From NCBI GenBank assembly GCA_964468475.1, contig CAYXUL010000001.1, positions 150,439-214,438 of the forward strand: a stretch of DNA of 64,000 nucleotides, written 5' to 3'. Below, piece by piece: positions 9,114 to 43,775 of this stretch. The number at the start of each line of letters is the position of its first letter. Within the stretch, counting starts at the first letter, position 1. Under the pieces are notes generated by a model, which worked only from the letters and a program-made list of their open reading frames with translations, did not search any database and was not told where the DNA came from. The translations under genes and the position numbers were made by a program. Origin of the DNA: an uncultured Ignavibacteria bacterium (GTDB lineage Bacteria > Zixibacteria > MSB-5A5 > CAIYYT01).

Positions 9114-9138
9114 TTGAGATGATCTTGAAAATGCGCTA

Positions 9139-14240: not shown

Positions 14241-15986
14241 ATGTCTTTTATAAGGAGGTGCGACGTGAAAGCGCAAAATCGATTGGTGATGGCCCTGTTG
14301 TCCATCGGCGTGCTGTTCTGGGCTGTTGGGGCCGCAGTAGCAATGCCGCCATATCCGGGTCTGCTGGACAGCCTCAAGGCGAACGGCAGTGATATGTCTC
14401 ATGTCCTGCAGAGTTGCCCCTTTGCCAAACTGCAGCAGCAAGGTGGGGTACCTGCCTACGCCGGTGAACCTATTCATTTGAATCCTGCTGCACCGATCTC
14501 AGAGAACATCCTCTGTGTCCTCGTAGAGTTCTCAGATAAGCCGATGCAGGTGAATCCAGGCTTCTTTGACACGCTGTTGTTTGAAAATCAGCCCGGTTGC
14601 GTGCGGCACTACTATAATGAAGTCACCTACGGCTCATTCGATGTTGTGACGGTCAATCTTCCGTCCGATCTGGGCTGGCAGACAGCACCGCAGACTTACG
14701 CTTACTATTGCAACGGCAACAACGGTATGGGTGCCTATCCGCAGAATTCGCAGAAGCTGGTCGAGGATATCGTCGACGCGATTGATTCACTGGTTGATTT
14801 TGCGGTATATGACAATAACAGTGATGGCTACGTTGACGGACTGATGATAGTCCATACGGGACCAGGCGCCGAGCTTACGGGAAGTGCTAACGATATCTGG
14901 TCGCACAAATGGGGTATCACACCGCGGCTCAAGGACGGTGTGTTTATCTCCACCTACGCGATCGAGCCCGAATATTGGCTGAATCCCGGAGATATGACCC
15001 TGGGCGTATTTGCCCATGAGATGGGGCACGCCTTCTTTGATTTACCTGACCTCTATGACGTTGACTACTCCTCCAATGGAATTGGCAAGTGGTCACTCAT
15101 GGCTGGCGGCTCGTGGAACGGTTCGCTCGGGAACTCGCCGGCGCATTTCGACGCCTGGTCGAAAGTTACTGCAGGCATTTGCTCGGCGACGAATGTGACC
15201 TCCAATATCAGCGGACAGTCGATTCCTGATGTGGAGACCAATGATACCGGCGCGATTTTCCGCCTGTGGACCAACGGCTCGGCGGGTGACGAGTACTTCC
15301 TGATCGAGAACCGCGAAAAAACCGGCTACGACTCAGGATTGCCCGGTCAGGGATTGCTGATCTGGCACATCGATGAAGCACAGACTACCGTCGACAACAC
15401 CGACAATGCCAATGAATGGTACCCGGGGCACACTGCTTCCGGTCACTACCGCGTAGCGCTGGAACAGGCTGACGGTCTGTACGAGCTTGAAAAGAAACTT
15501 GATCAGGGAGATGGGGCTGATCCTTATCCGGGTTCAACAAGCAACACCAGTTTCAATGCGCTGTCAAGTCCGTCATCGAATGACTACAATGACCAGGAAA
15601 CGCTGGTGGGAGTGACGAATGTCTCGGCGCCGGGCGCGACGATGACGGCAGACCTCTCAGTTAGCCTGCTGGCAGACGTAGACGATTATGGCTACTCAGC
15701 GACTCTGCCGGAGAGCTACGACTTGAAGCAGAATTATCCGAACCCGTTCAATCCGACGACCAGGATCACGTTTGACCTACCCCATTCGGGACACGTCAAC
15801 CTATCCGTGTTTAACGTCCTGGGAGAACAAGTCGATCAACTCATCGATAATGATCTCCCCGCCGGCAGGCACAGCATCAGCTGGGTCTCCGAATCGCACG
15901 GAGGAGCGTTGCCGTCAGGGGTGTACTTCTACAAACTCAGCACGCGCGACATCACGCTGACAAAAAAGATGTTACTACTGAAGTAG
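14241..15986 (+). CDS. M6 (immune inhibitor A-like) metalloprotease with T9SS-type (FlgD-Ig-like) C-terminal domain
   Basis: VFAHEMGHAFFDLPDLYD is the M6 zinc motif. The C-terminus is NYPNPFNPTTRITFDLP...GVYFYKLSTRDITLTKKMLLLK. A signal peptide is present. Confidence 0.85.
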   Translation: MSFIRRCDVKAQNRLVMALLSIGVLFWAVGAAVAMPPYPGLLDSLKANGSDMSHVLQSCPFAKLQQQGGVPAYAGEPIHLNPAAPISENILCVLVEFSDKPMQVNPGFFDTLLFENQPGCVRHYYNEVTYGSFDVVTVNLPSDLGWQTAPQTYAYYCNGNNGMGAYPQNSQKLVEDIVDAIDSLVDFAVYDNNSDGYVDGLMIVHTGPGAELTGSANDIWSHKWGITPRLKDGVFISTYAIEPEYWLNPGDMTLGVFAHEMGHAFFDLPDLYDVDYSSNGIGKWSLMAGGSWNGSLGNSPAHFDAWSKVTAGICSATNVTSNISGQSIPDVETNDTGAIFRLWTNGSAGDEYFLIENREKTGYDSGLPGQGLLIWHIDEAQTTVDNTDNANEWYPGHTASGHYRVALEQADGLYELEKKLDQGDGADPYPGSTSNTSFNALSSPSSNDYNDQETLVGVTNVSAPGATMTADLSVSLLADVDDYGYSATLPESYDLKQNYPNPFNPTTRITFDLPHSGHVNLSVFNVLGEQVDQLIDNDLPAGRHSISWVSESHGGALPSGVYFYKLSTRDITLTKKMLLLK

Positions 15987-16695: not shown

Positions 16696-19600
16696 CTACT
16701 GCAATTTCATCATTTTGCGGATTTCTAAATAGTGTGGGGTCTCGAGGCGATAGAAATAAACACCGGAAGATACCTGCCGCCCTGCCTGATCGGCGCCGTT
16801 CCAGATAACATACTTAAAGCCCGGCCCTTCATCCTTATCCACCAGCACTTTGACGGTCTGTCCGAGGATGTTATGGACGGTCAAGCGGACATGAGTGGCC
16901 TCCGGCAGAGTGTAGCTAATTCTGGTATCGGGATTGAAGGGATTCGGATGATTCTGCCACAGCGAGTACCCTTCCGGAAGCGTGGCATCACCCGAGAAAC
17001 TTTCTATTACCTGGATCAGCTTGTCCCCGACATCGCTTCCTGCCATACTACTGATAATTTGCCGCAGGCGCTTGAAATTCTCCTGGTGGGCAGAGAAATC
17101 ATAATCTACGGAGAGGGTCGGCGACGAATACTGATGTGTACTTCCCCAGTTTGGACCGATTGCCAGAACATCGAGCTCGTCGATAGTCCCATCACCGTTA
17201 GCATCCGCATAAGTTGCGCGAGGGTCATCCCACAACTCCGCCGGTTTCCCCTCCCAATTAGTGGTGGAGGTTGGGCGTGCCGGCCCCTGCATGCCGAAAA
17301 ACACGCCGATAGGCAACACATCAATCTCGTTCACGACACCATCGTTGTTGCAGTCGCCCGGATATACCGCCGGCCCGGTGATGAAAGTAAAGTCGTAGTC
17401 ATCTGTCGGTGAACCTTCGCCGACTCCGTTACCGTTACCATCAAGCGTATTACCAACCAGGTCGGCAACGGTCCCACTCACGGTGACATCCACGGTGTCA
17501 AACGGCGGGAAGTTGGCATCCGGAACAAACTGCCAATGGGTCTTATTGTCGACCGGACCGCCCTCCTGCAGCGTGCCGGCAACCAAGCCAGCCATTCTCT
17601 CGGAGAATACCTGCACCACGCCCGGCTGATCCGGTGTAGTACTCAGCAGCTCTGAGAAGTCGATATCAATGCGAGTATCGACCATTGCCCCGTCCGAGCC
17701 TGCGACCGGGGTTGTTGACTCCACGAGCGGAGGTTGTCGTTCAACACCGCCCACACCGGTAAGATCCACAGTCTTTTCCGGATCGCGCGGGTCATCGGTG
17801 GTTATCGTTAGGGTGCCGTCGAAGCGTGCCAGAGCATTTGGGTGAAACTCGACCTTCACCCAGAAAAATTGCCCCGGAATAATCGATGGTGAGGTGGTAG
17901 TCACCGGCACGAATTGACCGGTTGAACTCGCGACATTGAGCACCTTGAGGTTCAAACCGCTAAACAAAGCAGCCGTGTTCTGGACCTTAACCGAGTCAAC
18001 CTTAACCGAATCCACTACGACGGTATCGAAGTCTATTGAATTGGGCGTCAGCGCGCAGATCGTCGCTGAACTGGAATAGAAAGGGATCTCCAGAGTATCC
18101 ACCGGAAGGTTCGACGGTGGTTTGCCAATGATCCGCAGCAGGTAGTCACCAACGGCCAAATCCGGGGAAAGCTGCAGGGTCACGGAAGTGGTGTCGAGCG
18201 CTTTGATCGGATTGTTGGCGAATGTTGCCTGAACTGACCCACGGCGAGGATTAGCGGGCTCTATCCTTGCGGTAAGGTTAATGTTACGATTGTATGCCCC
18301 TATCAGCGTGTCCGCCCAGAAGGAGTAAACCTTCATTTGCGGGTCAAGCGAATCTGCACTGATAAAGTTGAGATCAAAACCGCTCACCTGTATCGGCTGG
18401 GAAGCGGAAACTACCACTCCTTCACCACAATCATTGATACCCATGGCAGTTGGCGTGAATATGCCGGGTTCCTGGTAAGTGTGATTAATCGTCAGCGCCG
18501 GGAAAGTGCTGACGCCCGTACTGCCGTCACCAAAGTCCCATTGAATTGAAGTCAACTGTTGCAGGCTTTGCGCCGTGAACTGCACGGGCAGCGGCGCGTC
18601 TCCCAATTGCGGCGAGACGGTGAAGCTAACGGTCGGTACCTCCTGAACGGAGATTGTCATGCTGTCAATATCTGAGCCACAGAAATTGCTTCGCTGCAGT
18701 ACAACATTATAACTGCCGGCAACAGCGAACTCATGCACGGGCTTTGCGGATGTAGAGGTTGTACCATCTCCGAAGTCCCAACGGTCGCTGGATGTGGTCA
18801 AACTATCTTCGTAGAAAAAGCTTACGGTCAACGGTACGCAACCGCTCTCGATATCGGCGAGCGGAGTCGCATCTGGGGGCGCCGTTACGATGATATCGGT
18901 AGAATCGGAAGACGTGTCGGTCGGACACACCAGTGTCATCCTGACCCGATAGGTTCCGGCATTCGCATACGAAGTTGTCGCCATCGTCGGCAGATCCGGA
19001 TTGTAAGTAATTGTATCCACTTCCCCGTTGCCATAATCCCAGACTGTGTAGTCGAAGAAACCATCTGACAGGTTTGTGAAGGCGACTATATCTCCCGTAC
19101 AAGGCGTCAGCGGCGTATAATCAAAATTCGGGACCAGGTTGCACTCGATGTACTCGTACGGTCCGATGTCGATTGCGGAGCCGGAGGTGCGCGGATAACC
19201 CGCATAGTCTATCGAGACAGATTCGAGCGGCAGTGCGGTACCCTTGTTGATCAGCGCTGAACCAGCCTTGAGCCTGAAATCGCCGTTGGCGGCATCTTCA
19301 AATTGCGGGTCGACGTTGAAAATATCATTGGACCCAAGAATACAATCGGGCGTCGTCGTAGGCGTGTTGCCGTAGTAGGCGTTCGTGAAGAAGTTGTAAC
19401 CATAATTGCTGCCACATTGAATAGCGTAATTTTGATTCGCCGCAAAAATATTGTTTTGCAGCAGCGGCTCAACGAACTGCGCCAAACCGATGGCGCCACC
19501 GACACTCTGAGATACATTCTGATAAAACAGGTTGTTCATGATATTCGAACCACTGTTGTCGGTATACAGGGCTGATCCGGAGAATCCGGAAGTATTGCTG

Positions 19601-20301
19601 CGAAATATGTTATTTTGCACGACCGAGTAAGCCTCAGTGGGTGAGCCGTAATTAAATGAGATTGCGCCGCCGGAAGAGTCCGCCAGATTGTTGAGGAACT
19701 CGTTGTTAAATATATAGGCGGCTGAAGACGCACAGAATATTGCGCCACCGTCCCGGCTCGCGTGGTTCCCAGAGAAGGAATTGTCGTGGATGTACGAAAG
19801 TGAATATGACATGTCAATTCCGCCACCGGAGGCACTCGCTCCCGGCGCGTTGTCGAAAATCCTGCAGTCCCTTATCTCCGGAGACGAGTAAACATCGGAG
19901 TTGCCCAGAATGCGAATGTTGGAGGGTGAGCCGCGTGTGATCGAGAATCCCTCCAGAACAGTCGTTGCTGTTATTCCTGCCTGAAAGGCAATGGGAACAC
20001 CAAGCAGTTGACCATTCAGGGTAGTCGAATCCGCACCGAGCTGGCTGGTGATGTAAACATCGCGATCCACCGAAACACCATCGATGTAGGTGCCCGGCTT
20101 GACCATAATTGTATCGATCGGAACTTTGGTGGATGCTATCGAGACCGCATAGCCGATGTGCTGCACCGGGCTAAGCTGGGTGCCGGAGTTGGCATCATTG
20201 CCGGTAGTGGCCACCCAGATGGTTCGCGCGGAAACAGCGCTGCTGAGGAATAGCAACGCTGCAACAATACGACCAAGAAAGATTTTCTGACTACCGCGCA
20301 A
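16696..20301 (-). CDS. Giant secreted protein: DUF1565/parallel beta-helix + 3 PKD + Ig-like (ASH / SbsA-like) + dockerin + T9SS-type CTD
   Basis: The 1201-aa ORF has a signal peptide. Its N-terminus is [22 protein letters not shown]. PbH1-like repeats are present (IHDNSF, IFNNEF, VQNNIF, IMNNLF, LQNNIF). Three PKD signatures are present ([23 protein letters not shown]). The dockerin and CTD are listed as separate features. Confidence 0.85.
   Translation of the reverse strand: [1201 protein letters not shown]
16699..16974 (-). other. T9SS type-A-like / FlgD-Ig-like C-terminal domain of the giant protein
   Basis: [40 protein letters not shown]...[22 protein letters not shown]. The M6 protease has the same architecture at its C-terminus. 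Confidence 0.7.
17143..17361 (-). other. Canonical two-repeat dockerin module inside the giant protein (aa 981-1053)
   Basis: [22 protein letters not shown] ... [22 protein letters not shown]: two EF-hand-like Ca-binding loops (DxNxDGxxxxxD), each followed by a helix. Confidence 0.7.
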
Positions 20302-27598: not shown

Positions 27599-29686
27599 TT
27601 ATCCCTGGATTGCATTGCACGGCGGGTAGGGTCCGCCGCCGAAGATATAGTTTATCAGAAAAACCGCGTCGGCGATGCTGATGCTTCCATCGCAATTGGC
27701 ATCGCCCGCCTCCAGTGCTGGAGTCGGCGCGGGACCACCCCCAAAGATGTAGTTTACGAGGTAGACACCGTCGCTGATGCTAAGACTGCCGCTCTGGTCG
27801 CTGTCTCCGTGTTGCAGGAAGACCTCTACCGCCCCGGAGTCAGAATCGCTCACCCCGACAACTGAGCTCGCCTGCGCAGTCAGAGTTATCGAGTTGACTG
27901 AGCCGATTGCCGCACTTGGCGGCGCCGTGACCACTACATTAAACTGACCGGTCTGTCCTGAATTCAGTGACAGACTACCGCTCGTCGGGCTCACTGGCCA
28001 GCCAAGTTGATCCGCCACGGTAATGTCGAAGTCGTCAGGCTGCAGACCGACATTCTCCACACTAAACTTGACCGTCACTGTGGAATTGGAATAGACGCTA
28101 TCATCCGCTATAGAGCTGACATCGATCGCGTACGCGGGACTGGAAACGTAATCGGCGCCGTAGCTGTAATTACGATTGTCGAGCGTCTGGCTGACGTTGG
28201 CGATCACCATGGCGAGCTCATCTTTGTCACCAACCGGGCTCAGGGTAAACTCGCCCGCCCCACTCCCGTCCAGAGGCATCTGATATTCTGTATAGTCGTT
28301 TGTCGACGTGTTACGGGCGAGCATGGTAACGATCCAGCTGACGCCGTCTTCACCGTCAAAGTCGACCGTGAACGAAAATGCATCTGAGGGGATATTGAAC
28401 ACTATGTAATTCGCACCCATCCCGTCCGGATACTTCCCCGTGACCGGCCCCAGGCCTGAAACCGGATAAGTCGAATGAGTGCGGGTGATGGCGATCAGCG
28501 GATAATTCTCAGCTTCCTCATAGTGATTGCCGTCGTTGCGCGAGGCTGTGACATAATTCCACGCCCAGAACTCCGCCACTTCCTGCGGGACAGTGGCTCC
28601 CTTGGCAGCGAGCACCGTGCTGAATGCCGGGTAGGGGCTGGTTGTAATCAATTGATTCCAAATATCGGGAAATGTTTGCGCACCGAAATTCTCCTGCAGA
28701 TACTTGCCCCAGATAAATGCTGAATACATATGCCCATTAGTGATGGAGTGCAGGGACCAATCGGGATCATTGAAAAGGGTTGGAAGATAATTGTAGTTGT
28801 CGTTGACTACGTCGTAAACATAATCCTCCATCCAGGTCGACGAGGTTTCCATGAACCACACCTGCTCGCCGACGTCATAAGCGAACTGAATCGCATGATA
28901 GAATTCGTGCGCAACGGTGACTTTCGCCGCTCCCTTCTGATTTCCATCAGGGTCGGTGTTGGGCGGGAACCCAATGAAATTGCGATGCACAGATATGTAA
29001 CTGTAGGCATCGTTCCACGGCTCCGGACCAGCGCCCTCAGGCTGAGTGTAGCCATAGTACGGCATTTCCTCGGTATAGATATCGTAGAGGCTATCGCCTC
29101 CGAGAGTACCGTCGGCGGGCGGCGTCAGCTGGCCAAGTCCGATAATCTCGGTTCTATAGGAACTGTCTGCGTAATCGGCAATCCACTGCACGAAGTCGGG
29201 AATTCCATCAGCCGGATCGACATCGGTACTCGGCACCGCGTTGGAACCGGATAGGTCATAGTGTATGCGAAAATGTCCTTCCGGGCTGACAATACTGTAC
29301 GTCTGGCTCGGCCGTGTCAGCATAGATGACAATGCGTCACGTGTTGAACCATCAAGCTTATTCCACTGCTGGCGCACCTCCAACAGCACGGGCGTTGCAC
29401 AACGGCCCTGATCTATCACATTCGATTGATACTCGACCGGCAGCGCACCGGGCCGCTTGATCGATTCCACTGAGTAGAGGAGTCGCTGCTGTTCAGTCAG
29501 CTTGCCCTGGTCGTAGGCTTCCCGGATTAGAGTCAGTGAGGATTTCCCGTTCGCAGCGCGTGCCGGCTGCAATCCGAGCGTTACAAGCAACGCTGCAAGC
29601 GCAACGATAATCGAGTGGTAGTGGTATCGCATAGCTGAGCTTTCTAACCTGTCAGAGTCGATTCTTGATTGATGTCGAGCAGTCAC
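27599..29686 (-). CDS. Secreted HExxH putative zinc metalloprotease with C-terminal twin dockerin-like module
   Basis: VTVAHEFYHAIQFAYDVGEQVWFMETSSTWMEDYVY contains the HExxH motif. The probable true start is Met19 (29632), giving the signal peptide MRYHYHSIIVALAALLVTLGLQPARA. The C-terminal module spans 27602-27808. Confidence 0.75.
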   Translation of the reverse strand: MTARHQSRIDSDRLESSAMRYHYHSIIVALAALLVTLGLQPARAANGKSSLTLIREAYDQGKLTEQQRLLYSVESIKRPGALPVEYQSNVIDQGRCATPVLLEVRQQWNKLDGSTRDALSSMLTRPSQTYSIVSPEGHFRIHYDLSGSNAVPSTDVDPADGIPDFVQWIADYADSSYRTEIIGLGQLTPPADGTLGGDSLYDIYTEEMPYYGYTQPEGAGPEPWNDAYSYISVHRNFIGFPPNTDPDGNQKGAAKVTVAHEFYHAIQFAYDVGEQVWFMETSSTWMEDYVYDVVNDNYNYLPTLFNDPDWSLHSITNGHMYSAFIWGKYLQENFGAQTFPDIWNQLITTSPYPAFSTVLAAKGATVPQEVAEFWAWNYVTASRNDGNHYEEAENYPLIAITRTHSTYPVSGLGPVTGKYPDGMGANYIVFNIPSDAFSFTVDFDGEDGVSWIVTMLARNTSTNDYTEYQMPLDGSGAGEFTLSPVGDKDELAMVIANVSQTLDNRNYSYGADYVSSPAYAIDVSSIADDSVYSNSTVTVKFSVENVGLQPDDFDITVADQLGWPVSPTSGSLSLNSGQTGQFNVVVTAPPSAAIGSVNSITLTAQASSVVGVSDSDSGAVEVFLQHGDSDQSGSLSISDGVYLVNYIFGGGPAPTPALEAGDANCDGSISIADAVFLINYIFGGGPYPPCNAIQG

Positions 29687-29692
29687 TGCTTC

Positions 29693-31447
29693 CTAATTGC
29701 ATGGTGGCGGACCTGACGCGAAGATGTAGTTGATTATGTAAACGACATCGCTGACGGAATAAGTCCCGCTGCAATCGACGTCCATTGTTTCAATCGGGTT
29801 GGGGGCCGGACCTCCTCCGAAGATGTAGTTGATCCCGTAAACCGCATCCGAGATTGAGACATTATCGTTGTCATCGAGGTCTCCACGAGTACGGAAATGG
29901 AAATTATAAGTGTAGTTGAATTGAGTTCCATATTGCGAGCCGATGCTGGGAATATATATGATACGCAGCACATCCTGAAGATTGGCGATGCTCACTCGCT
30001 GTTTGCCGTCATCCAGCGGGCTTATAGTCTTTTCATCGTACGTACCATTGCCATAATCCACTATATACGAAAGTCCCCAGACAGCGGTATTGAGCCCGGT
30101 GAAATCGAAAGTGAGTATGCCGCTGTAACCGGTGAGATTGTCGAAAATGATGTAGTTGGAGGCAAGCGGCTGGGGTGGAAGTGTTGAACTGTTATTGGAG
30201 TCAGGAACCACATCGTGGTGCGCCATTATCGCTACTTGTGGATAGGCGGCGCCCTCCTCGAAGTGCAGGGTGTCGGCCCGGGAACCAGTGAAATAATTCC
30301 AGCGGGCGAATTCCCCAAATGCTTTATCGAGTGACGAGCCGTGCGCGGCCAGGTTGGTTGACCACGCCGAGATCGCAGAATTGTAGCGGCAATCATTCCA
30401 CATATCGTGGAGAATGCCAATTCCGTATTTTTCGATCAGGAACTTGGGCCAGATGAAAGAAGCGTACTCATGGCCGTTGTCAGATTGCAGCCCCGTTTCC
30501 GGCGCGTCGAAAAAGAACGGAAGGTAGTTGTAGTTGTCATTTACCGCAGGAAAGACGACTTCCTCCATGCAGGTGGAAGTTTCTTCCATGAAGTACGGTG
30601 CTTCGTAGACATCGTAGGCAAACTGAATCGCGTGATGGAATTCGTGGGCAATTGTCACTTTCAAGGCACCGTAAACGTCTCCATCCGGATCATCATTGGG
30701 AGGAAAACCGGGCGAGAAACGGCTGTGAACTTTTGCAAATGAGCTGTAATCGTTCCAATCAGCCGGGCCCGCCGTCTCCGGAGTGGTGAAGCCGTAATAG
30801 GGTATTACCTGGAAGTAGATATCGTACAGGCCAAGGCCACCACCCTGAGTAAGGTCGGATACCGGTTCGTAATAACCGAGGTTGTTGACATACTCATCCC
30901 ACGCACTGTCGGCGGCCATCATGGCAAAGTCAATGAAGTCGGGAATTCCATTGCTATTGAGGTCAGCTGATGGCACCGAGTCCTGGCCCGAAGTATCAAA
31001 GTGAAGACGGAAATGCCCCCCCGGCGTATCAATGTAAAATTGCGTTGACGGACGCGTAACCAATGCCTCACGGTAGCTGCCATACTTCTCGGGATTGCCT
31101 TCAATTACGGCCAGAGCCTCTGTCATAAGGTCGGTGCCGCACTTGCCGTAGACCATCTCCGACGACTGGTACTCGGTCGGTAGATCAGCTTGGTTGGTTG
31201 CTGACAGCGCCTTGTAAATAGTTCCGAGATCCCTGGATAGCTGCCCTGATGCCACCGCGGCGTCAATCTTCTGTAGTGAATTCTGCGCCGACATCAATGG
31301 ACTTGCACACAAGCAGAGAGCAATGGTTGCCGTGAAGATAAATATGAGACCAGGTTTTGTGTTCACAATCTTTACGAAGTATCGAGGTTCACCGGACCCT
31401 AAACTACGGTACAATTGAAATTTAGGGGCTTTACCCAAAACCGTCAA
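29693..31447 (-). CDS. Secreted HExxH putative zinc metalloprotease, tandem paralog, with twin dockerin-like module
   Basis: VTIAHEFHHAIQFAYDVYEAPYFMEETSTCMEEVVF. The domain order matches the neighbour, and the two genes are 6 nt apart. The C-terminal module spans 29696-29884. The start may be GTG 31366. Confidence 0.75.
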   Translation of the reverse strand: MTVLGKAPKFQLYRSLGSGEPRYFVKIVNTKPGLIFIFTATIALCLCASPLMSAQNSLQKIDAAVASGQLSRDLGTIYKALSATNQADLPTEYQSSEMVYGKCGTDLMTEALAVIEGNPEKYGSYREALVTRPSTQFYIDTPGGHFRLHFDTSGQDSVPSADLNSNGIPDFIDFAMMAADSAWDEYVNNLGYYEPVSDLTQGGGLGLYDIYFQVIPYYGFTTPETAGPADWNDYSSFAKVHSRFSPGFPPNDDPDGDVYGALKVTIAHEFHHAIQFAYDVYEAPYFMEETSTCMEEVVFPAVNDNYNYLPFFFDAPETGLQSDNGHEYASFIWPKFLIEKYGIGILHDMWNDCRYNSAISAWSTNLAAHGSSLDKAFGEFARWNYFTGSRADTLHFEEGAAYPQVAIMAHHDVVPDSNNSSTLPPQPLASNYIIFDNLTGYSGILTFDFTGLNTAVWGLSYIVDYGNGTYDEKTISPLDDGKQRVSIANLQDVLRIIYIPSIGSQYGTQFNYTYNFHFRTRGDLDDNDNVSISDAVYGINYIFGGGPAPNPIETMDVDCSGTYSVSDVVYIINYIFASGPPPCN

Positions 31448-34976: not shown

Positions 34977-36362
34977 TCAATCGAGAGATTTGCGCAGCGC
35001 ATCCATCGCCGGTTTGGAAATCACGCTGCGGTACTTCCCCGCGCTGGTAGCCTCGATCTTGTCGACTACCTCGACCGCGATTTTGAATTCGCCCTTGAAT
35101 TCCTCGAAGAAGGCTGTCTCGACAAGTTTACGATCCCTGTTTTCATTGTAATTCTGCGAGGGAACGATACGGACGATAATCTCATCGCCGGAAACTTGTT
35201 CAAGCTGCACACGGTGATAGATCAAGAGGTTATTGCGGCGCAACACGGACGAAATGTAGGGCAGCTTCAAGCCGTTGCGGGTAAGAATGAGATCCTTGCC
35301 ACGACCGCCGAGGACTTCCATTGCCGGAAATGGGTACGGGCTGTCGTCTTGATACCCGAAGTAGCGTCCCAGGTCCTCAGTGTGATATCGAATGAGCGGG
35401 AAGGCATAATTGTCGAGACTGGTTGAAATGATGTTTCCCTGTGAGGCAAGTGAATCGTTACCAGGGTCGTTAGCAGAATCGTCATCAAATTCGAGATAGC
35501 AGTAGTCGGAGAAAATCAGCAGGTTGCCGGCGTGGTCGCTTCCTGCTGCCGCAGTATTCTCGCGATTGCCATAGTAGTTGTAAAGAGTACCCCCGTAAAA
35601 CTCCGTAATCAGCTTTCGATACTCAGGGTAAATCAACTCCCCTATTGAAAGGAAGATCGGAACCTGCAGGGGTTCCAGGTCAAGTTCCCTGCAGAGACTG
35701 GCAAGTATGGCGGCGCTCGCTGGCTGCGCCTGGATCATACGCGGACGGAAATCTCTAATCTGTTCATAGACCGTTCGCGCGAGGTCGCGGTTGATTGCGT
35801 GCGGGTGAACGTAAATGCAGTTTTCATTCAGGTCGATCGGAAACTGATCGACTGGCTGATCCTTGTGAAACGCGGTCGTCAGCCTGGCGCGCCGCTGCCG
35901 AAAATCGTAGCCGATACTTCTTCGGTATCGCCAGACTATGGCATTGCGATGTGCTTCCAACTCTCGCGAGCGATACAGCAGCAGGCCGTCTCGGGTGGTG
36001 CCGCTGGTGATCGTGCTGATAGGGTCGAATTTATCGAACTCATCAGACTTCAGTTCTTCCCGATTCAAGTCCACGTCATCTTTGGCCAATACCGGAATCT
36101 GCTTGAAGTCGCTCCAGTGCTGAATATCGGCAGGACTGATCCCCTTCTCCCTAAACTTGCGCGTGTAATAGGGAACGTGTTGGTAGGCATAGTCGATTAA
36201 CGCTTTCAAACGACTCCACTGGTAGTCCTCGATTTCTTCGCGAGAACGCGACAGGTTAGCCTCGTACCCAGAGAGTGCTTTTCGGAAGGTGCTGCCATAT
36301 TTGAGCTGAAGTGGTACGGCGGTGTGGTATAGCTTTCGCAGATAGTGAAACGGGCTGCTCAT
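34977..36362 (-). CDS. Adenylate-forming enzyme of the phenylacetate-CoA ligase / F390 synthetase (CapK-like) family
   Basis: The 461-aa ORF has ITSGTTRDGLLLYRS (the SGTTG-like P-loop of PaaK-type ligases) and a C-terminal GKYRSV. The ATG at 36362 lies 3 nt after the upstream GNAT stop. Confidence 0.75.
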   Translation of the reverse strand: MSSPFHYLRKLYHTAVPLQLKYGSTFRKALSGYEANLSRSREEIEDYQWSRLKALIDYAYQHVPYYTRKFREKGISPADIQHWSDFKQIPVLAKDDVDLNREELKSDEFDKFDPISTITSGTTRDGLLLYRSRELEAHRNAIVWRYRRSIGYDFRQRRARLTTAFHKDQPVDQFPIDLNENCIYVHPHAINRDLARTVYEQIRDFRPRMIQAQPASAAILASLCRELDLEPLQVPIFLSIGELIYPEYRKLITEFYGGTLYNYYGNRENTAAAGSDHAGNLLIFSDYCYLEFDDDSANDPGNDSLASQGNIISTSLDNYAFPLIRYHTEDLGRYFGYQDDSPYPFPAMEVLGGRGKDLILTRNGLKLPYISSVLRRNNLLIYHRVQLEQVSGDEIIVRIVPSQNYNENRDRKLVETAFFEEFKGEFKIAVEVVDKIEATSAGKYRSVISKPAMDALRKSLD

Positions 36363-36365
36363 CAA

Positions 36366-37939: not shown

Positions 37940-37967
37940 TTGACTTTATCAAAACAGATCGTATACT
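37940..37967 (+). promoter_or_regulatory. Sigma-70-like promoter upstream of the fibre cassette (TTGACT-N16-TATACT)
   Basis: TTGACT lies at 37940-37945 and TATACT at 37962-37967, about 170 nt upstream of the first fibre gene. Confidence 0.5.
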
Positions 37968-37977
37968 GGAACAGGCT

Positions 37978-38010
37978 GATTTCTGATACCCGCAAGGGTC
38001 ATCAGAAATT
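37978..38010 (+). promoter_or_regulatory. 5'-proximal stem-loop with GNRA (GCAA) tetraloop in the fibre-operon leader
   Basis: gatttctgataccc GCAA gggtcatcagaaatt forms about 13 bp with one bulged C. It starts about 4 nt after the predicted TSS. Confidence 0.45.
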
Positions 38011-38137
38011 GCCTGCATCACCAACGATATTACCTAAAGCTAGCGTGAGACCTTCTCGTTGCTCAGTACACCTATATCGCAACAACAGCAATACAGTACG
38101 TGTTTTGAAATGTCGAGATAACTGACGAATAATTCCC

Positions 38138-39883
38138 ATGCGAAGGAGACTACAACAAATGCGACAGCTCAGAGAAACCGACAGAAACTCGCTTGCCATA
38201 ACGATTGCTTTCGTTTTTTGCTTATCGCTCGCACTCAATGCAGCCGTGCCGCCCCTGCTAAGTTACCAGGGACGACTTCAGGACAGTGGCGGCAATCCAC
38301 TGGACGGCACATATGGGATGACATTTACAATCTACGATGCACCGACCGGTGGCAGTATTCTCTGGAGCGAAAGCCAGATCGATGTAGCCGTATCAGGCGG
38401 CTTGTTCGCTACGCAATTGGGAAAAGTTAACCCGCTGCCTGCTTCAGTCTTTGAGACCGAAGATGTTTATCTCGGGATCACAGTTGGAGCCGATCCGGAA
38501 ATGAGCCCGCGCCAGCGGATCGTAACCAGCGCGTACTCGGATCGCGTGCAGACTGTCGACGGTGCCGAAGGTGGCAGGATTGACGGAAACCTGCGGCTCA
38601 CTTATCCGGCGGCGCCGACCGGACCGCCCCTGACAGCCCTGCATCTTGAAACGGAAGATATTGGTTTGACTTCGGGTGCCCTGGAGCAGGATCGCGTTGT
38701 CGTTGAGGCTGCCGACGCTGTGTTAGGGCTCTATAGCAACAATACAGGTGTAACCGGGTCGGGGCTGGCGTTCGGTGAAATCGATGGTGGTAAGTTTTCG
38801 GACAAGTGGGGCATCATTCGTGAAACCTCCGGCTCCGGTAGTGCTCTGGTACTTACTTATGGTAGCAAAGCAAGCATTTCCGCAAATTCTGCGGCTCTCT
38901 GGATAAATTCCAATCGGGAGGTCGGCGTTGGTACCACAGCTCCGGATGCAACCCTGAATATTCAAGGCGGGAGATGGAATTTAGATTCGGGTGAGGGCGA
39001 TTTCAAAGTTGGCAATGATACCTACCGCTTCAAAATCGGTGTTGCCACCGGTGGCGGCGGCGCCGGGATCACCAGGATGCGATCGCAGGGTGGAGCGAAT
39101 GCGCTCGTGCTGGGAGCAGATTCAAGTGACGTGCTCACGGTAAGAAGTAATGGGGTTGCCGTCAACAGCCTTGATCCCACGAACCCCCTGACAGTCTATG
39201 GCTTCGGTACCTCTTCCGGAGCATTCAGCGGTGAAGCCAACGTTGTCACCCGATTCCGTAACAGCGCTCCGGGGGAGTATACGGTCGTTTCACTTGATGC
39301 ACCGTCGGATCAGGCTTCAAGACTCGTATTTTCCAGTAACAATGTCGGTAAAGCTGGATTAACTTACTACAATTTCATCGACAGATTCCTGATTGGTTTC
39401 GACGGATGGTACGAGATTCGCATCGATGAATCCAACCACAATGTCGGCATTGGCCGCAATCCAGACGCCAGCTATCAGCTCGCTGTCGCGGGAGATATGC
39501 GAGCGACCGATATCTGCTACAGCGGCACAATCGGCGCCTGCTCCGACCGTCGTTTCAAGAAGAACATCACTCCCCTTACCGGATCGTTGGATAAGGTCAT
39601 GAGCCTCCGTCCGGTCAATTACGAGTGGCGGCGCGAGGAATTTCCTGATCGCGGCTTCGGCGAAGGCAATAAGATCGGGCTCATCGCTCAGGAAGTCGAA
39701 GATATCGTCCCCGAAGTCGTCAAGAAGCAAGGTGACGGCTACTATTCGGTGGACTATGGACGGCTAACTCCTATATTGATTGGAGCTGTTCAGGAACAGC
39801 AAGCGACAATCAAAGAATTGAAGTCTCAGCTTGCTCAGGCGCTTAAACGTCTCGACGACGTTGAGAGTAAGCTCAGACAATAA
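38138..39883 (+). CDS. Secreted tail-fibre-like protein 1 with C-terminal S74 intramolecular-chaperone domain
   Basis: A signal peptide is present. The shared N-domain is SYQGRLQDSGGNPLDGTYGMTFTIYDAPTGGSILWSE...DPEMSPRQRIVTSAYS. The C-terminus is CSDRRFKKNITPL...IGLIAQEVEDIVPEVV...YSVDYGRLTPILIGAVQEQ, i.e. the SDxRxK autocleavage motif plus chaperone. An alternative start is ATG 38159, downstream of AAGGAG. Confidence 0.8.
   Translation: MRRRLQQMRQLRETDRNSLAITIAFVFCLSLALNAAVPPLLSYQGRLQDSGGNPLDGTYGMTFTIYDAPTGGSILWSESQIDVAVSGGLFATQLGKVNPLPASVFETEDVYLGITVGADPEMSPRQRIVTSAYSDRVQTVDGAEGGRIDGNLRLTYPAAPTGPPLTALHLETEDIGLTSGALEQDRVVVEAADAVLGLYSNNTGVTGSGLAFGEIDGGKFSDKWGIIRETSGSGSALVLTYGSKASISANSAALWINSNREVGVGTTAPDATLNIQGGRWNLDSGEGDFKVGNDTYRFKIGVATGGGGAGITRMRSQGGANALVLGADSSDVLTVRSNGVAVNSLDPTNPLTVYGFGTSSGAFSGEANVVTRFRNSAPGEYTVVSLDAPSDQASRLVFSSNNVGKAGLTYYNFIDRFLIGFDGWYEIRIDESNHNVGIGRNPDASYQLAVAGDMRATDICYSGTIGACSDRRFKKNITPLTGSLDKVMSLRPVNYEWRREEFPDRGFGEGNKIGLIAQEVEDIVPEVVKKQGDGYYSVDYGRLTPILIGAVQEQQATIKELKSQLAQALKRLDDVESKLRQ
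39542..39880 (+). other. Peptidase S74-type intramolecular chaperone autoprocessing domain (fibre 1)
   Basis: S-D-R-R-F-K-K-N-I followed by GLIAQEVE...VDY..L, as in endosialidase and tail-spike chaperone domains. Confidence 0.7.
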
Positions 39884-39902
39884 GAAAGGTGGATATCGTC
39901 CA

Positions 39903-41309
39903 ATGCAATTCTTAAGAAACAAGCCTTACTTTGCCCTGCTATCCATTCTGTTCGTTGCAACGACTTTCAGCAGCGTCATAGCTTCAACCCCGAGTGCGAT
40001 GAACTACCAGGGATACCTCACTGATTCGGGTGGCAAGCCGATCGACGGCAATTTTAACCTTACTTTTAGCATCTATTCCGAGGAAAACGGCGGCACTCTG
40101 TTCTGGCAGGAGACACAAAACGTTGATGTCAGTGATGGATTGTTTGCAGTCATCCTTGGAGACAACACGCCTTTGACAAGTGCTGTCTTCACCACCGAAA
40201 AGGTATACCTCGGCATAGCAGTCGACTCCGATCCGGAGATGTCACCTCGCCAGCGGATCACGACGGCAGCTTTCTCGCATCGCGTGACTACCATCGACGG
40301 TGCTCAGGGTGGCTCGGTTTCAGGGGATGTTGAGGTCCTCGGCAATTTCACCAACGGCAACTATGCATTTCTCAATCAGCTCCGTTTGGGAAGTCCTTCC
40401 CTCTCTGGGAAACTTGACCTGTTTCAGGATGGTTCCAGCAATCCGATTGCTGAACTTCAACCGCACCCAACAGCAGGTGGCGGCGAGTTCAGGATCTATG
40501 ATCCATCCCACGGCCAGTCCGTTTACGCTTCACATGATGTCAGCGCCGGCGGCGGCGGTTTTCTCAGCGTCTACCGTAACGCGGCTTCGACCGTTGGTTT
40601 TGTAGTCGATGGTAACTACAATGGTACCACCTCGCCCAGGGTTATTATTCAGGATGCCAACAGGGCGATGATCTTCGATACTGGCGTTGATGGCGACTCG
40701 GCGGTTATGCTCCCGTACGGGACAATCAATTCAATTGAAACTGCAAATGAGGCCGGTGTGTCGGAGGCGGCGGAATACATCGATCTCACGCTGGATGACA
40801 CGTTTTCGACCCCTCAGACTCTGATATCTCAGTCTATAGACTGTCCCCGATCTGGCTACGTGTTGGCGTTAGGATCCGCGAGCGTTTACTTTCACAATAG
40901 TAGTGGCATCTGGGCAGACGTTGATTTTGGCTTGAGCACAAATTCGAGCATACTGCAGACATACAAATACACTTACAGGCACCATTCACCGATTGCTACC
41001 GGCGAGGAGCAGATACCGATTACGATTCACCGAGTCTTTCAGGTGAGTGAAGGACAAAAAGTGATCAATTTCCTGGCAAAGACCCAGGGCCTCATAGATG
41101 TGACAATCCTGAATGCACAGATAAGCCTGATTTATCTCCCTACCTGGTATGGTCCACGCACACCCGGGGCGCAAGACTCTCAGCAGGATATCGATCAGCT
41201 GGTAGACGAACGTGTGAAGGAAGAAACCGCGCGACTGGAAAAGCAATTCGAACGGCGTTTGCGAGAAGTTGAGACGGCAATCCAGGAGCAGCAGGGAGCG
41301 ACAGACTAA
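39903..41309 (+). CDS. Secreted tail-fibre-like protein 2 (shared N-domain, no S74 domain, C-terminal coiled coil)
   Basis: The ATG at 39903 follows AAGGTGGA. The sequence is MQFLRNKPYFALLSILFVATTFSSVIA/STPSAMNYQGYLTDSGGKPIDGNFNLTFSIYSEENGGTLFWQE...DPEMSPRQRITTAAFS. The C-terminus is IDQLVDERVKEETARLEKQFERRLREVETAIQEQQ. Confidence 0.75.
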   Translation: MQFLRNKPYFALLSILFVATTFSSVIASTPSAMNYQGYLTDSGGKPIDGNFNLTFSIYSEENGGTLFWQETQNVDVSDGLFAVILGDNTPLTSAVFTTEKVYLGIAVDSDPEMSPRQRITTAAFSHRVTTIDGAQGGSVSGDVEVLGNFTNGNYAFLNQLRLGSPSLSGKLDLFQDGSSNPIAELQPHPTAGGGEFRIYDPSHGQSVYASHDVSAGGGGFLSVYRNAASTVGFVVDGNYNGTTSPRVIIQDANRAMIFDTGVDGDSAVMLPYGTINSIETANEAGVSEAAEYIDLTLDDTFSTPQTLISQSIDCPRSGYVLALGSASVYFHNSSGIWADVDFGLSTNSSILQTYKYTYRHHSPIATGEEQIPITIHRVFQVSEGQKVINFLAKTQGLIDVTILNAQISLIYLPTWYGPRTPGAQDSQQDIDQLVDERVKEETARLEKQFERRLREVETAIQEQQGATD

Positions 41310-41403
41310 GATACACTTCCCGGACACAGGCGCGATCGTAAGATGGTTGACAAAAATATAACTATAATATGGACTAATAGAATCTATTTGGAGGGCTATA
41401 AGA

Positions 41404-42963
41404 ATGTATTTGGTAAAACAAAATCAAAGGTGCATTTCCGGCTTTGCGCTGCTGGCGCTAACCCTGTTTTCTTTTCCCGTTTTTGCCACCCCACAGGGAA
41501 TTAGTTATCAGGGGCGGCTCACTGACTCGGGTGGCAGCCCGCTCACAGGCACATACAATCTGAACTTTGGTATATACACTACCCCGAGCGGGGGGGCTCC
41601 GCAGTGGAGTGAGGACCACGTCAGCGTAAATGTTGATGGCGGCATATTCACGGTGATCCTGGGTACAATGACCCCTTTTCCGGCAGGTCTTTTTCAAGAC
41701 GGCGATTTGTTCCTGGGGATCAGCATTGACGGTGGCGCGGAAGCAAACCCGCGGCAACAGCTTCTCTCAGTTCCTTTCGCTCAAACCGTCGAAACGATTG
41801 ACGGCAGTTCCGGAGGAACGATTCAGGGTCAGGTTTCGATCCCTGATGGTCTGATTGTGGGAATTGGTGACATGGTGGGCGACAGCGCCGGCGTGGCAAT
41901 CGGGCACTCAAATAGTGCCAGCGGGGTGTATTCATCGGTAGCGGGCGGGGAAGAAAATGAGGCGACCGGGCGTAACTCGTTCGTTGGCAGTGGAATTCAA
42001 AATTCGGCAAGCGGCGTAAACTCAGCCCTGTTGGGTGGCAATCAAAACAGAACTTCCGGTGAGCTTTCGTTTATCGGTGGGGGTTCCCATGTACAGGCGG
42101 ACGGCCTGGAATCAGTGATTGCAGGTGGATTCTATAATGGAGCGCAAGGTGAACAAGCGGCAGTCCTCGGGGGTTCCTTTAACCATGCTGATGGGGTGGT
42201 GTCAGCAATTGGAGGGGGAAGTACCAATCAGATAAGTGCTGACTACTCCGTGATTTCAGGCGGAATCTTCAATGAATGCCGTGATCAATACGGCGCGGTC
42301 GTGGGAGGTGGAGAGAACATCAATTATGGGTCCTACAGCACCATCCTCGGCGGCTTCGGTTGTCAAATACGAGATACAACCTCAATCCAGTCAAGCTACT
42401 CGATGGCATTCGGGCACAACGTTGTACTTGCAGGTGTCACCGATGTCGTAGGACTTTTTGATGGTGAAAACTCAGGCCTGTTGGCCATCAATCACGATAC
42501 CGATGACGGTCCGATTTCCTACCCGATAGAGGTCGGCACCAACTCCGCCAACGGCAACGGCGCTCACCTGACCGCAGGCGGCGTCTGGACAAACGCTTCC
42601 AGCAAGGAGTTTAAGGAAAACTACACTCCCCTCGACCGGCAGGAGTTGTTTGAGAAGATCAAGTCTCTGAATATCGAGGGTTGGAATTACCGCAGTAGTG
42701 AAGAATACCATATCGGCCCTTACGCCGAAGAGTTCGTGAAGGCCTTCGACGTGGGCACGATCGACGAACAGACCGGAGAGCGAGTTAACACCTACCTCGC
42801 CGCCGGTGATGTAGCGGGCGTCGCATTGGCTGGAGTCAAAGGCCTGCTGGCCGAAAACGCTCGCCTGAAGGAGCAGCTGGCGCTAAACAGAAGCCAGACT
42901 GAAGATCTCCGGAAACGAGTAAAAAAGCTGGAGCAAGCTCTTGAAATACTTGCGAAAAATTAA
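41404..42963 (+). CDS. Secreted tail-fibre-like protein 3: shared N-domain + ~14-residue beta-roll repeats + S74 chaperone domain
   Basis: The shared N-domain is ISYQGRLTDSGGSPLTGTYNLNFGIYTTPSGGAPQWSE. Repeats of the form SxxxGGxxNxAxG run from about 41900 to 42360. The C-terminus is ASSKEFKENYTPLDRQELFEKIKSLNIEGWNY...LAAGDVAGVALAGVKGLLAEN. Confidence 0.8.
   Translation: MYLVKQNQRCISGFALLALTLFSFPVFATPQGISYQGRLTDSGGSPLTGTYNLNFGIYTTPSGGAPQWSEDHVSVNVDGGIFTVILGTMTPFPAGLFQDGDLFLGISIDGGAEANPRQQLLSVPFAQTVETIDGSSGGTIQGQVSIPDGLIVGIGDMVGDSAGVAIGHSNSASGVYSSVAGGEENEATGRNSFVGSGIQNSASGVNSALLGGNQNRTSGELSFIGGGSHVQADGLESVIAGGFYNGAQGEQAAVLGGSFNHADGVVSAIGGGSTNQISADYSVISGGIFNECRDQYGAVVGGGENINYGSYSTILGGFGCQIRDTTSIQSSYSMAFGHNVVLAGVTDVVGLFDGENSGLLAINHDTDDGPISYPIEVGTNSANGNGAHLTAGGVWTNASSKEFKENYTPLDRQELFEKIKSLNIEGWNYRSSEEYHIGPYAEEFVKAFDVGTIDEQTGERVNTYLAAGDVAGVALAGVKGLLAENARLKEQLALNRSQTEDLRKRVKKLEQALEILAKN
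42598..42960 (+). other. S74-type intramolecular chaperone domain (fibre 3, variant SSKEFK cleavage motif)
   Basis: SSKEFKEN replaces SDRRFKKN. The downstream chaperone pattern is conserved. Confidence 0.6.
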
Positions 42964-43003
42964 GCGTGAACTATATTTACCTATAATCAAGGAGATCCCA
43001 CAC

Positions 43004-43651
43004 ATGAAAGTTACTCGCCTGCCTCTCATAGCGGCGTTTTCCTTTTCCGTTCTCTTGATCCTGTCTGCTTCGGTAACTGCTGCGAAGAAGGACAAACTCG
43101 CGGCTAAGGAAAAGAAGGCGACGACTACTCAAGCAGAAGCTCACAAGAGTTCGTCGTCCGTCAAAGCTGCACCTCGTACTTCGGCAACTAATACCGGCGC
43201 TACCAATTTGCCCGGAACCCCGACCGGGCCCATAGATGGCAGCAATCTGCTGCCAAGCTCACCTCAGACCGGCGAGCAAATCAACTGGGATGTCATCTCC
43301 TCGGGGGGCGGCCCGATGACTTCGACTAATTTCATGCTGGACGGGACAATTGGTCAGACGGTAGCAGGTCCTTCCAGTTCAACGAACTTCGTGCTCAACA
43401 GCGGCTACTGGCAGAATTTTGGTACCGGCCCGAGTTACGTCTGCGGAGACGCGGACGGTGACGGCCAGGTTATCATTTCAGACGCGGTATATTTAATAAA
43501 CTACATCTTCGCCGGCGGCCCGGCCCCCGATCCGCTCGTCAGCGGCGATGTCGATTGTGACGGCGTGCCAATCATTTCTGACGCCGTTTATATCGTCAAC
43601 TACATCTTTGCCGGCGGCCCGGCGCCGTGCGCAGCGTGCCCGCAGACGTAA
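43004..43651 (+). CDS. Small secreted protein with twin dockerin-like C-terminal module
   Basis: AAGGAG lies 9 nt upstream of ATG 43004. The signal peptide is MKVTRLPLIAAFSFSVLLILSASVTA. A low-complexity linker follows, then STNFMLDGTIGQTVAGPSSSTNFVLNSGYWQNF. The twin module spans 43445-43648. Confidence 0.75.
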   Translation: MKVTRLPLIAAFSFSVLLILSASVTAAKKDKLAAKEKKATTTQAEAHKSSSSVKAAPRTSATNTGATNLPGTPTGPIDGSNLLPSSPQTGEQINWDVISSGGGPMTSTNFMLDGTIGQTVAGPSSSTNFVLNSGYWQNFGTGPSYVCGDADGDGQVIISDAVYLINYIFAGGPAPDPLVSGDVDCDGVPIISDAVYIVNYIFAGGPAPCAACPQT

Positions 43652-43747
43652 CGCCAGGCAACGGAATTTTCAGCTGGACGACTCGGAGTCGACTAAGCAG
43701 GCATCCGGCGATCGGACCGAAAAAAGTCAAAATCAACCGACAGCCTC

Positions 43748-43775
43748 TTGACAAAAGGCTGTCGGTTCGTATTAT
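43748..43775 (+). promoter_or_regulatory. Sigma-70-like promoter for rplM-rpsI (TTGACA-N16-TATTAT), -35 box in the loop of a hairpin
   Basis: TTGACA lies at 43748-43753 and TATTAT at 43770-43775. The hairpin pairs aaccgacagcc (43735-43745) with ggctgtcggtt (43757-43767). Confidence 0.55.

Follow-up and report, generated by a model that had tools for sequence, protein, structure and literature searches.

The closest described relatives of the proteins considered here are the mosaic adhesive trimer (MAT) fibres of Bdellovibrio bacteriovorus (Caulton et al., 2024; PMC10769870). In the passages of that paper on which we draw, a member of the superfamily is defined by a signal peptide, a beta-rich and conserved domain spanning ~130 amino acids (aa) directly behind it, a trimeric fibre and an S74 or other adhesive C-terminal tip. 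Strain HD100 has 21 such paralogues, 13 with S74 and 8 without, for which the authors reported surface display, S74 autoprocessing, crystal structures of tips and glycan binding by Bd2439. Supplementary Table S3 of the same paper lists members from Omnitrophica, Planctomycetes, Micavibrio, Myxococcales and the FCB group, framed as 'predator-associated', and the authors describe the surface element bound by the N-terminal domain as unidentified. Here we describe a four-gene cassette from a 64,000-nucleotide stretch (the window) of a 215-kb contig, CAYXUL010000001.1, belonging to an uncultured bacterium of the Zixibacteria (GenBank assembly GCA_964468475.1). The cassette, at 38138/38159–43651 on the plus strand, is best read as a chromosomal operon encoding three Sec-exported fibres of the MAT superfamily (P1, P2 and P3) together with a conserved partner protein (P4), a reading to which we assign a probability of roughly 0.72.

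The first-pass annotation of this DNA, made from the letters alone, had proposed four co-directional genes, and these were confirmed as plus-strand open reading frames (ORFs): P1 at 38138–39883 (581 aa, an S74-type fibre), P2 at 39903–41309 (468 aa, a non-S74 fibre), P3 at 41404–42963 (519 aa, an S74-like fibre) and P4 at 43004–43651 (215 aa, the partner protein). It had also proposed Sec signal peptides, and a rule-based check found them on all four proteins, each showing a basic n-region, a hydrophobic core that is 12 or more residues long, and an AXA-like site. Cleavage is predicted between LNA and A in P1 (signal peptide aa 1–35), VIA and S in P2 (aa 1–27), VFA and T in P3 (aa 1–28), and VTA and A in P4 (aa 1–26). 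Directly after the signal peptide P1, P2 and P3 have in common a domain of ~119 aa, hereafter the N-domain, which occupies aa 36–154 of P1 (38243–38599), aa 28–146 of P2 (39984–40340) and aa 29–146 of P3 (41488–41841). By BLASTP, P1 is 49% identical to P2 over 147 aa (E 5e-41) and 45% identical to P3 over 119 aa (E 3e-33). The three-way alignment has 40 invariant columns, which bear out the motif that the first pass had drawn for this region, P3 departing from it in the YLGI/EMSPRQ part (FLGISIDGGAEANPRQ). Beyond the N-domain the three proteins did not align with one another, and at the DNA level P1 and P2 are alike over a 129-nt stretch of the N-domain alone (71% identical); they are thus old paralogues and not recent duplicates. 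In the AlphaFold2 (AF2) model of P2 the N-domain is all-beta, with a predicted local distance difference test score (pLDDT) of 96–98. None of the Pfam scans yielded a model for it, and its profile found nothing among PDB sequences (best E 0.62).

The N-domains of P1, P2 and P3 all match the NCBIfam model NF053851 ('Bdello_MAT_N, mosaic adhesive trimer family chimeric fiber protein') with E values of 3e-6 to 1e-8, and so does every one of 28 mature N-domains, taken without signal peptides from the window and a diverse set of relatives (best E 3.8e-11). On every point that can be read from sequence the cassette appears to fit the published definition of a MAT fibre: the rule-based check gives P1–P3 a Sec signal peptide, and the tip is variable, being S74 in P1 and P3 and non-S74 in P2. 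The likeness to the Bdellovibrio proteins appears to extend from signal peptide and conserved beta-rich N-domain through the fibre to the variable tip, and in both sets some members have S74 and others do not. Passages of the MAT paper describe further parallels, namely several paralogues per genome, often contiguous; TNF-like tips (Bd2439 and Bd2734) and YapH/UspA-like annotation within the family; a comparison of Bd2734 with 2wq4, which is also the comparator of the P2 tip; and a VG.G..P...L 'capping loop' motif before S74, as in P1. The two sets differ in that P1–P3, at 468–581 aa, are about half the ~1000 aa usual in Bdellovibrio, that the host belongs to the Zixibacteria and is without a known predatory lifestyle, that the cassette N-domains match the Bdellovibrio model in part, and that a downstream partner gene is absent from the passages of PMC10769870 retrieved by term search, 'operon' and 'downstream' not being among the terms. 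The first pass had regarded the fibres as a 'domesticated' kind of unknown function. That description is superseded by the MAT architecture and by the NCBIfam match of all three N-domains, and the accompanying conclusion that these are cellular surface fibres and not virion parts we judge to be right.

The fourth protein provides the new element. After its signal peptide and a low-complexity linker, P4 has a 50-aa core of three N-aromatic-x-aliphatic repeats (aa 90–139, 43271–43420; GEQINWDVISSGGG...STNFMLDGTIGQ...SSSTNFVLNSGYWQNF), which in relatives takes the form of three S-x-N-Y/F-x-L repeats, of which the first is followed by a GGG turn, the second by GQ and the third by GFW. A two-repeat dockerin follows (aa 148–212, 43445–43639), scoring 23.7–23.9 bits against PF00404 Dockerin_1 (cutoff 22.9); its two 22-residue repeats are duplicated GDxDxDG...ISDAVY.INYIF segments, modelled by AF2 at pLDDT 92–96. 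The first pass had described P4 as a dockerin-tagged small protein added to the fibres, and the dockerin stands, but P4 is no add-on: it is a syntenic fibre partner conserved across phyla. The subfamily with core plus dockerin has at least 958 members by word-index search. The core profile found nothing among PDB sequences (E 0.18, a chance xylanase match), and the idea that the S-x-N-Y-x-L repeat is a homologue of the first strand of the N-domain (NYQG.L) was discarded at an hhalign probability of 0.55%.

When loci were fetched through the N-domain with the three-sequence alignment of P1–P3, the core module was present in 38 of 82, and never within an ORF bearing the N-domain. A run of fibre genes was counted as evaluable if it had at least 700 nt of downstream sequence (n=71), and a partner as adjacent if an ORF with the core lay on the same strand and started between -300 and +400 nt from the stop of the last fibre. 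By these rules 28 of the 71 runs have an adjacent downstream core-module ORF separate from the fibre, one per run of one to four fibres, against a background of 41 core-module ORFs among 8,629 in these loci. In reciprocal look-ups of eight P4-like proteins, picked solely for lying on long contigs, an N-domain gene ends 10–60 nt upstream in six (6/7 evaluable); one of the others has no N-domain gene, and the last cannot be evaluated, as its upstream gene starts at the contig end and the domain would be cut. Partners nearly always have a signal peptide of their own, and the module often begins at the cleavage site. What follows the module varies: among 35 partners, 13 end in a dockerin and 5 in a FlgD_ig/type IX secretion system (T9SS) sorting domain, others having PKD, fn3, CARDB, PEGA or long Ig-like stalks, or, in a few short ones, nothing. 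In many phyla the last gene of a fibre run has the three-repeat module encoded immediately behind it, and this neighbourhood indicates that P4 is functionally tied to the fibres.

Several findings weigh against the reading of the cassette as an operon of MAT-superfamily fibres with a conserved partner. The Bdello_MAT_N scores, 27–35 bits, lie below the curated subfamily cutoff of 60, and the match is limited to roughly the initial 60 residues (profile positions 3–90 of 162). Owing to these scores and this coverage we take the kinship to be at superfamily level, where the profile matches support it, and not as membership of the Bdellovibrio subfamily. An adjacent partner is missing from 43 of the 71 evaluable fibre runs, and the P4 core, modelled by AF2 as a monomer, reaches a pLDDT of 53–58, a value that would fit folding-on-binding and a poor model equally well. 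The runs without a partner also speak for another explanation, in which fibres and P4 are merely co-transcribed and do not interact, P4 being an independent small adhesin or cellulosome-like component. The dockerin is indeed a general C-terminal tag in this organism, with three more dockerin proteins encoded at 16696–20301 and 27599–31447. We consider this explanation unlikely, since adjacency is kept across very distant phyla while fibre tips and partner C-termini change, as is typical of interacting pairs, and since the reciprocal association is far above background. The position of P4-like genes, directly downstream of the last fibre gene and in one copy per run, recalls instead the assembly proteins encoded just downstream of phage tail fibres, and a core that is not confidently folded alone would suit such a protein. 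That P4 is a fibre assembly chaperone and not an anchor nevertheless seems slightly less plausible still: attachment and export modules of the kind found in P4-like proteins (dockerin, T9SS, Ig-like stalks) are needless for a transient periplasmic chaperone, P1 and P3 already bear an S74 chaperone of their own, and P4 is unlike phage families, the canonical core (taken from a related locus) giving no tblastn match in 50,697 phage genomes.

If P4 is instead a partner in the assembled structure, a mechanism can be sketched. Sec would export all four proteins, as their signal peptides suggest, and by family resemblance the ~119-aa N-domain would form the base, the cell-proximal end of each fibre, and stay at the cell. 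The three-repeat module of P4 might then bind the trimeric N-domain, possibly with one repeat per subunit, while its dockerin would tie the complex to a cohesin-bearing surface component. P4 possibly also helps fibre export, and in T9SS lineages the fibre might pass the outer membrane by means of the partner's sorting domain. The gene neighbourhood suggests an anchor, P4 binding to the conserved N-domain and holding the fibres at the cell surface, and to this we give somewhat less than even odds. The broader proposal is more tentative: three-repeat-module proteins in general, P4 included, may be the surface element that holds MAT-type fibres, with a monomeric, pseudo-threefold module docking on the trimeric N-domain and a C-terminal part that plugs into whichever attachment or export system the lineage possesses, be it dockerin, T9SS, Ig-like stalks or the body of PamT, a pilin of the Candidate Phyla Radiation (CPR). 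Five relatives (P0066, P0067, P0070, P0091 and P0100) repeat the N-domain three or four times in tandem, in some cases away from the N-terminus, as at residues 208–726 of P0070, and tandem or internal N-domains of this kind do not fit a simple role as the base of the fibre.

P4 can also be compared with non-cellulosomal dockerin proteins, for like at least three other secreted proteins of the window it ends in a two-repeat type I dockerin. It differs in having neither an enzyme nor a carbohydrate-binding domain, its cargo being the 50-aa three-repeat module tied to fibre genes. The three further dockerin proteins are all on the minus strand: a 1200-aa PKD/Big_5 protein at 16696–20301, and DUF6055 proteins at 27599–29686 and 29693–31447. 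A neighbouring M6 peptidase (14241–15986, plus strand) has a T9SS sorting domain instead of a dockerin, so that the organism seems to use two surface-targeting tags, dockerin and T9SS, side by side. No cohesin was seen among the scanned ORFs of the window.

A second comparison is with PamT, which is predicted to be the tip pilin of the Pam pilus in CPR bacteria (bioRxiv 10.64898/2026.03.03.709456; NCBIfam NF058579). In many partners the N-terminal ~70 residues, made up of signal peptide and S-x-N-Y-x-L module, are similar to the beginning of PamT, and both kinds of gene lie near a tail-fibre-like gene. They differ in that the partner match is partial and sub-threshold, and in that P4 has a dockerin in place of the truncated Ig-like domain of PamT. 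One might suppose that the cassette belongs to a donor-strand-exchange pilus of the Pam-like (CPR) type, in which P4 would be PamT, the tip pilin, and the fibres would serve as adhesins at the tip. In favour of this are weak matches of 24 of 35 P4-like proteins to CPR_pilus_PamT (NF058579; best E 5e-9), and the report in the same preprint of a 'tail fibre-like protein' conserved beside pam operons. The scores are only 17–36 bits against a cutoff of 240 and the matches are confined to profile positions 6–77 of 241; P4 of the window has no PamT match even at E <= 10; general Pfam scans of the flanks turned up no PamA/B/C/D-like genes, no Pam-specific search having been made; and Pam pilins are reported to be exclusive to CPR bacteria. 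We regard a Pam-like pilus as highly improbable, and membership of P4 in PamT was rejected as a partial match of relatives only, far below cutoff. The occurrence of the module beside a fibre-like gene in CPR agrees with the module being the fibre-binding part, and the link between fibres and partners offers an alternative reading of the pair of PamT and tail-fibre-like protein in CPR pilus operons.

The distal parts of the three fibres have little in common except that their modules (S74, TNF-like, UspA1 head and coiled coils) all come from obligately trimeric families. The S74 domains noted in the first pass at the ends of P1 and P3 both score above the Pfam cutoff of 22 for PF13884 Peptidase_S74, with 64.4 bits at aa 469–529 of P1 (39542–39724) and 27.4 bits at aa 399–449 of P3 (42598–42750); P2 had no S74 match in the Pfam scan. 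The Ser-Lys dyad is canonical in P1 (S469-D-R-R-F-K474) and kept in P3 (S399-S-K-E-F-K404), where the usual Asp is replaced by Ser. In P1 a phage-fibre-like shaft (aa ~200–465) leads to a VGIG..P...L loop directly before S74, which aligns with MyRF, and the S74 domain, predicted to act as chaperone and protease, is followed by a C-terminal helix to aa 581. Residues ~200–570 match PHROG tail-fibre families, many of them in the C-terminal 130 aa (best E 6e-29) and a few in the shaft, and a further match of P1 is to the S74 region in PDB entry 6f45, which was deposited under the name 'Long tail fiber distal subunit'. P1 thus resembles S74 phage fibres and tailspikes (endosialidase K1F, T5 pb1, the T4-like long tail fibre 6f45) and eukaryotic MyRF in its S74 with Ser-Lys dyad and preceding capping loop, and the phage fibres in its shaft. 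The proteins of the window differ from these in that they carry a Sec signal peptide, in that a cell-type base replaces the virion-attachment domain at the N-terminus, and in lacking phage context.

In P2 a low-confidence shaft leads, in the AF2 model, to an eight-strand beta-sandwich tip at aa ~285–415 (40755–41147; pLDDT 63–85) and a C-terminal helix at aa 427–467. Foldseek matched the model to the TNF-like lectin domain of BC2L-C (2wq4; TM 0.67, root-mean-square deviation (rmsd) 3.9 A), and its other compact PDB matches were RANKL, a C1q domain and ExsFA. To judge from domain sizes the 2wq4 match probably sits on the tip and not on the N-domain, and the tip is predicted to be TNF/C1q-like. 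Full-length P2 found nothing among PDB sequences, and among viral structures Foldseek gave only low-TM (0.15–0.25), high-rmsd matches to phage J-type and tail proteins, which are uninformative.

P3 carries a UspA1-head-like GGxxN beta-roll at aa ~155–317 (41866–42354) and, beyond its S74, a C-terminal coiled coil. The match of aa 155–317 to the UspA1 head beta-roll 3pr7 (E 1e-17), together with the annotation of some relatives as 'trimeric autotransporter adhesin', raises the question of whether the fibres are trimeric autotransporter adhesins (type Vc). P3 does share with the UspA1/YadA autotransporters the GGxxN left-handed beta-roll repeats and, by analogy, would likewise form a trimeric surface adhesin fibre. 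Against this, P1–P3 show no YadA-type C-terminal membrane anchor (Pfam, E <= 1), the secretion route is another one, and the polarity is reversed, the conserved attachment end being N-terminal and the C-terminus an S74 predicted to be removed; we find it scarcely credible that they belong to type Vc. As MAT-superfamily fibres, P1–P3 would be expected from the behaviour of the family to trimerise from the C-terminus, and the S74 of P1 and P3, once folded, would release itself by cleavage at S469 and S399 and so uncover the tip. The three fibres would then present three binding surfaces, for glycans, other cells or particles by analogy with Bd2439, with a phage-like shaft and S74 chaperone in P1, a putative TNF/C1q-like lectin-type tip and coiled coil in P2, and a UspA1-head-like roll with an S74-like domain in P3.

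The phage-like distal part of P1 also raises the possibility that the locus is the remnant of a prophage, tailocin or contractile injection system, in which case the fibres would be parts of a virion or particle and their signal peptides incidental. The first pass had stated that phage genes are lacking nearby and that the neighbours are cellular, and the surroundings agree. The examination for phage genes covered the 64-kb window and two syntenic loci, and 30 flanking ORFs were scanned with Pfam. All matches are to cellular families and five ORFs are without a match; capsid, terminase, portal, tail, baseplate, sheath, integrase and lysis families did not appear among the 30. Upstream lie an isochorismatase, a GNAT protein, a Ser/Thr kinase, TPR proteins, dockerin- or T9SS-tagged secreted proteins and sensor kinases, and downstream rplM, rpsI, rpsB, tsf, pyrH, frr, uppS, cdsA, ubiA, nlpC/P60, uvrC and others. 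Within the 64 kb there is no tRNA and there are no att-like or flanking direct repeats, and the GC content of the cassette (0.52–0.535) equals that of its flanks (0.51–0.55).

The chromosomal position, with isochorismatase before the fibres and P4 and rplM-rpsI-rpsB-tsf after them, is kept in two other genomes. One (L003) has homologues of the ORF at 34977, the GNAT protein and the isochorismatase, then a single 573-aa non-S74 fibre, a P4 homologue (50% identical) and rplM-rpsI-rpsB; the other (L091) has four fibres, a P4 homologue (55% identical) and then rplM through nlpC. Between the window and these two loci only the N-domain (35–50% identity) and P4 are conserved, save for an orthologue of the C-terminal half of P3. 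The locus is thus a stable cellular site with turnover of its fibre content. The ORF just mentioned (34977–36365, minus strand; 462 aa) has no Pfam match and is syntenic in L003, where it is 48% identical and again beside the GNAT and isochorismatase genes.

The N-domain found no match in 50,697 GenBank phage genomes, and nine partial matches among the 2.9 million contigs of IMG/VR (L082–L090). One of these (L090, UViG_3300042402_007908) is a genuine phage contig, on which terminase, portal, protease and major head protein genes lie directly upstream of 7941–9233; the product of this gene, a virion structural protein of 430 aa, is similar at its N-terminus to the first ~72 residues of the N-domain (40% identity). 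The resemblance may mean that the cellular base domain and a virion-attachment domain are linked in evolution, and it can be counted, with the PHROG and 6f45 matches of P1, in favour of a phage origin. Taken with the cellular neighbours, the synteny beside rplM in three genomes, the Sec signal peptides on all four proteins and the absence of any PHROG match for P2 and P4, the rarity of the N-domain in phages makes a prophage or particle remnant very improbable.

Outside phages the N-domain is exceedingly widespread. Searches with a word index yielded only short fragments, and the family became visible in an exhaustive profile search of the representatives of 50%-identity clusters, with 56,105 representatives at E <= 1e-3 and 27,604 at E <= 1e-10, almost always at residues ~22–145. 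With 56,105 such clusters the N-domain family is very common, and the cassette is nothing unusual within it. The clusters looked up are mostly named 'hypothetical protein' or 'tail fiber domain-containing protein', and among 80 full-length relatives 37 have S74 and 18 a beta-roll. The phyletic distribution, whose examination had been proposed with the first pass, covers many phyla. Among species-representative genomes the best matches are Zixiibacteriota metagenome-assembled genomes (MAGs), which agrees with the lineage of the host, as does the presence of a protein assigned by NCBI to Candidatus Zixiibacteriota in the 90%-identity cluster of the P4 homologue of L003. The domain was found in Zixibacteria, Ignavibacteria, WOR-3, KSB1 and Omnitrophota (including Ca. 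Velamenicoccus archaeovorus), in Planctomycetes, Nitrospirota, Dehalococcoidia, Anaerolineae, Bipolaricaulia and Geobacter, in alpha- and gammaproteobacteria, and on contigs binned with ANME-1 and Methanosarcinales archaea.

That the fibres extend the already known MAT family to the Zixibacteria is by itself a modest result. The N-domain, though, reaches lineages that are not predatory, among them Dehalococcoidia, Geobacter, Nitrospirota and contigs from ANME-1 MAGs, and because the family is so large and occurs in lineages without a predatory lifestyle, MAT fibres are probably general bacterial surface adhesins and not a speciality of predators. What is new here is the conserved downstream partner with its lineage-specific anchors, a candidate for the surface element of the N-domain left unnamed in the MAT paper. 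If the proposal is right, a modular two-gene system of fibre plus adaptor would extend over dozens of bacterial phyla and possibly some archaea, mostly in hosts that are not known predators.

Three of the archaeal-binned contigs, L063, L067 and L077 (ANME-1 or Methanosarcinales), carry N-domain fibre genes, and in L067 the fibre has beside it a partner that combines the S-x-N-Y-x-L module with a PEGA-type C-terminal part; fibres on such contigs reflect either cross-domain spread or mis-binning. The sole organism from a cultured consortium among the N-domain matches is Ca. Velamenicoccus archaeovorus, of the Omnitrophota (OP3), whose chromosome NZ_CP019384.1 bears an N-domain fibre gene within 772504–788812 (L056); no adjacent partner was detected there. 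A note to Table S3 in the MAT paper describes OP3 as enriched in predators and symbionts (PMC10769870).

The remaining features concern gene starts and transcription. The four genes are spaced by 19, 94 and 40 nt, and a GGAG- or Shine-Dalgarno-like site precedes all four starts. P1 most probably begins at M8 (38159), preceded by a GGAG ribosome-binding site, and for P2 an alternative TTG start (giving 492 aa) is less likely. The gene calls for P3 and the 215-aa P4 are identical in an independent Logan assembly. The first pass had placed a good promoter ahead of the genes. A site TTGACT-16-TATACT is present at 37940–37967 on the plus strand, matching the consensus at 10 of 12 positions, and a second promoter-like site lies at 38105–38133 (plus strand), also by consensus match. 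The region holds nine such sites against 5.5 +/- 2.5 in shuffles (~1.4 standard deviations), which is no significant excess, so that the 37940 promoter counts as a consensus match only. Between P4 and rplM, at 43735–43767, is a near-perfect palindromic hairpin with 16-bp arms (AACCGACAGCCTCTTG/CAAAAGGCTGTCGGTT), which probably ends the cassette transcript. A putative promoter of the rplM operon, TTGACA-16-TATTAT (11/12 consensus), overlaps the hairpin at 43748–43775, its -35 hexamer straddling the hairpin centre, and the segment 43735–43775 looks like a combined terminator and rplM-operon promoter.

At two other loci, L092 and L095, a LytTR two-component system and an FG-GAP/UnbV_ASPIC protein are encoded upstream of the pair of fibre and partner. 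Several short ORFs make up the fibre region of L095, which points to pseudogenes or to frameshifts in the assembly.

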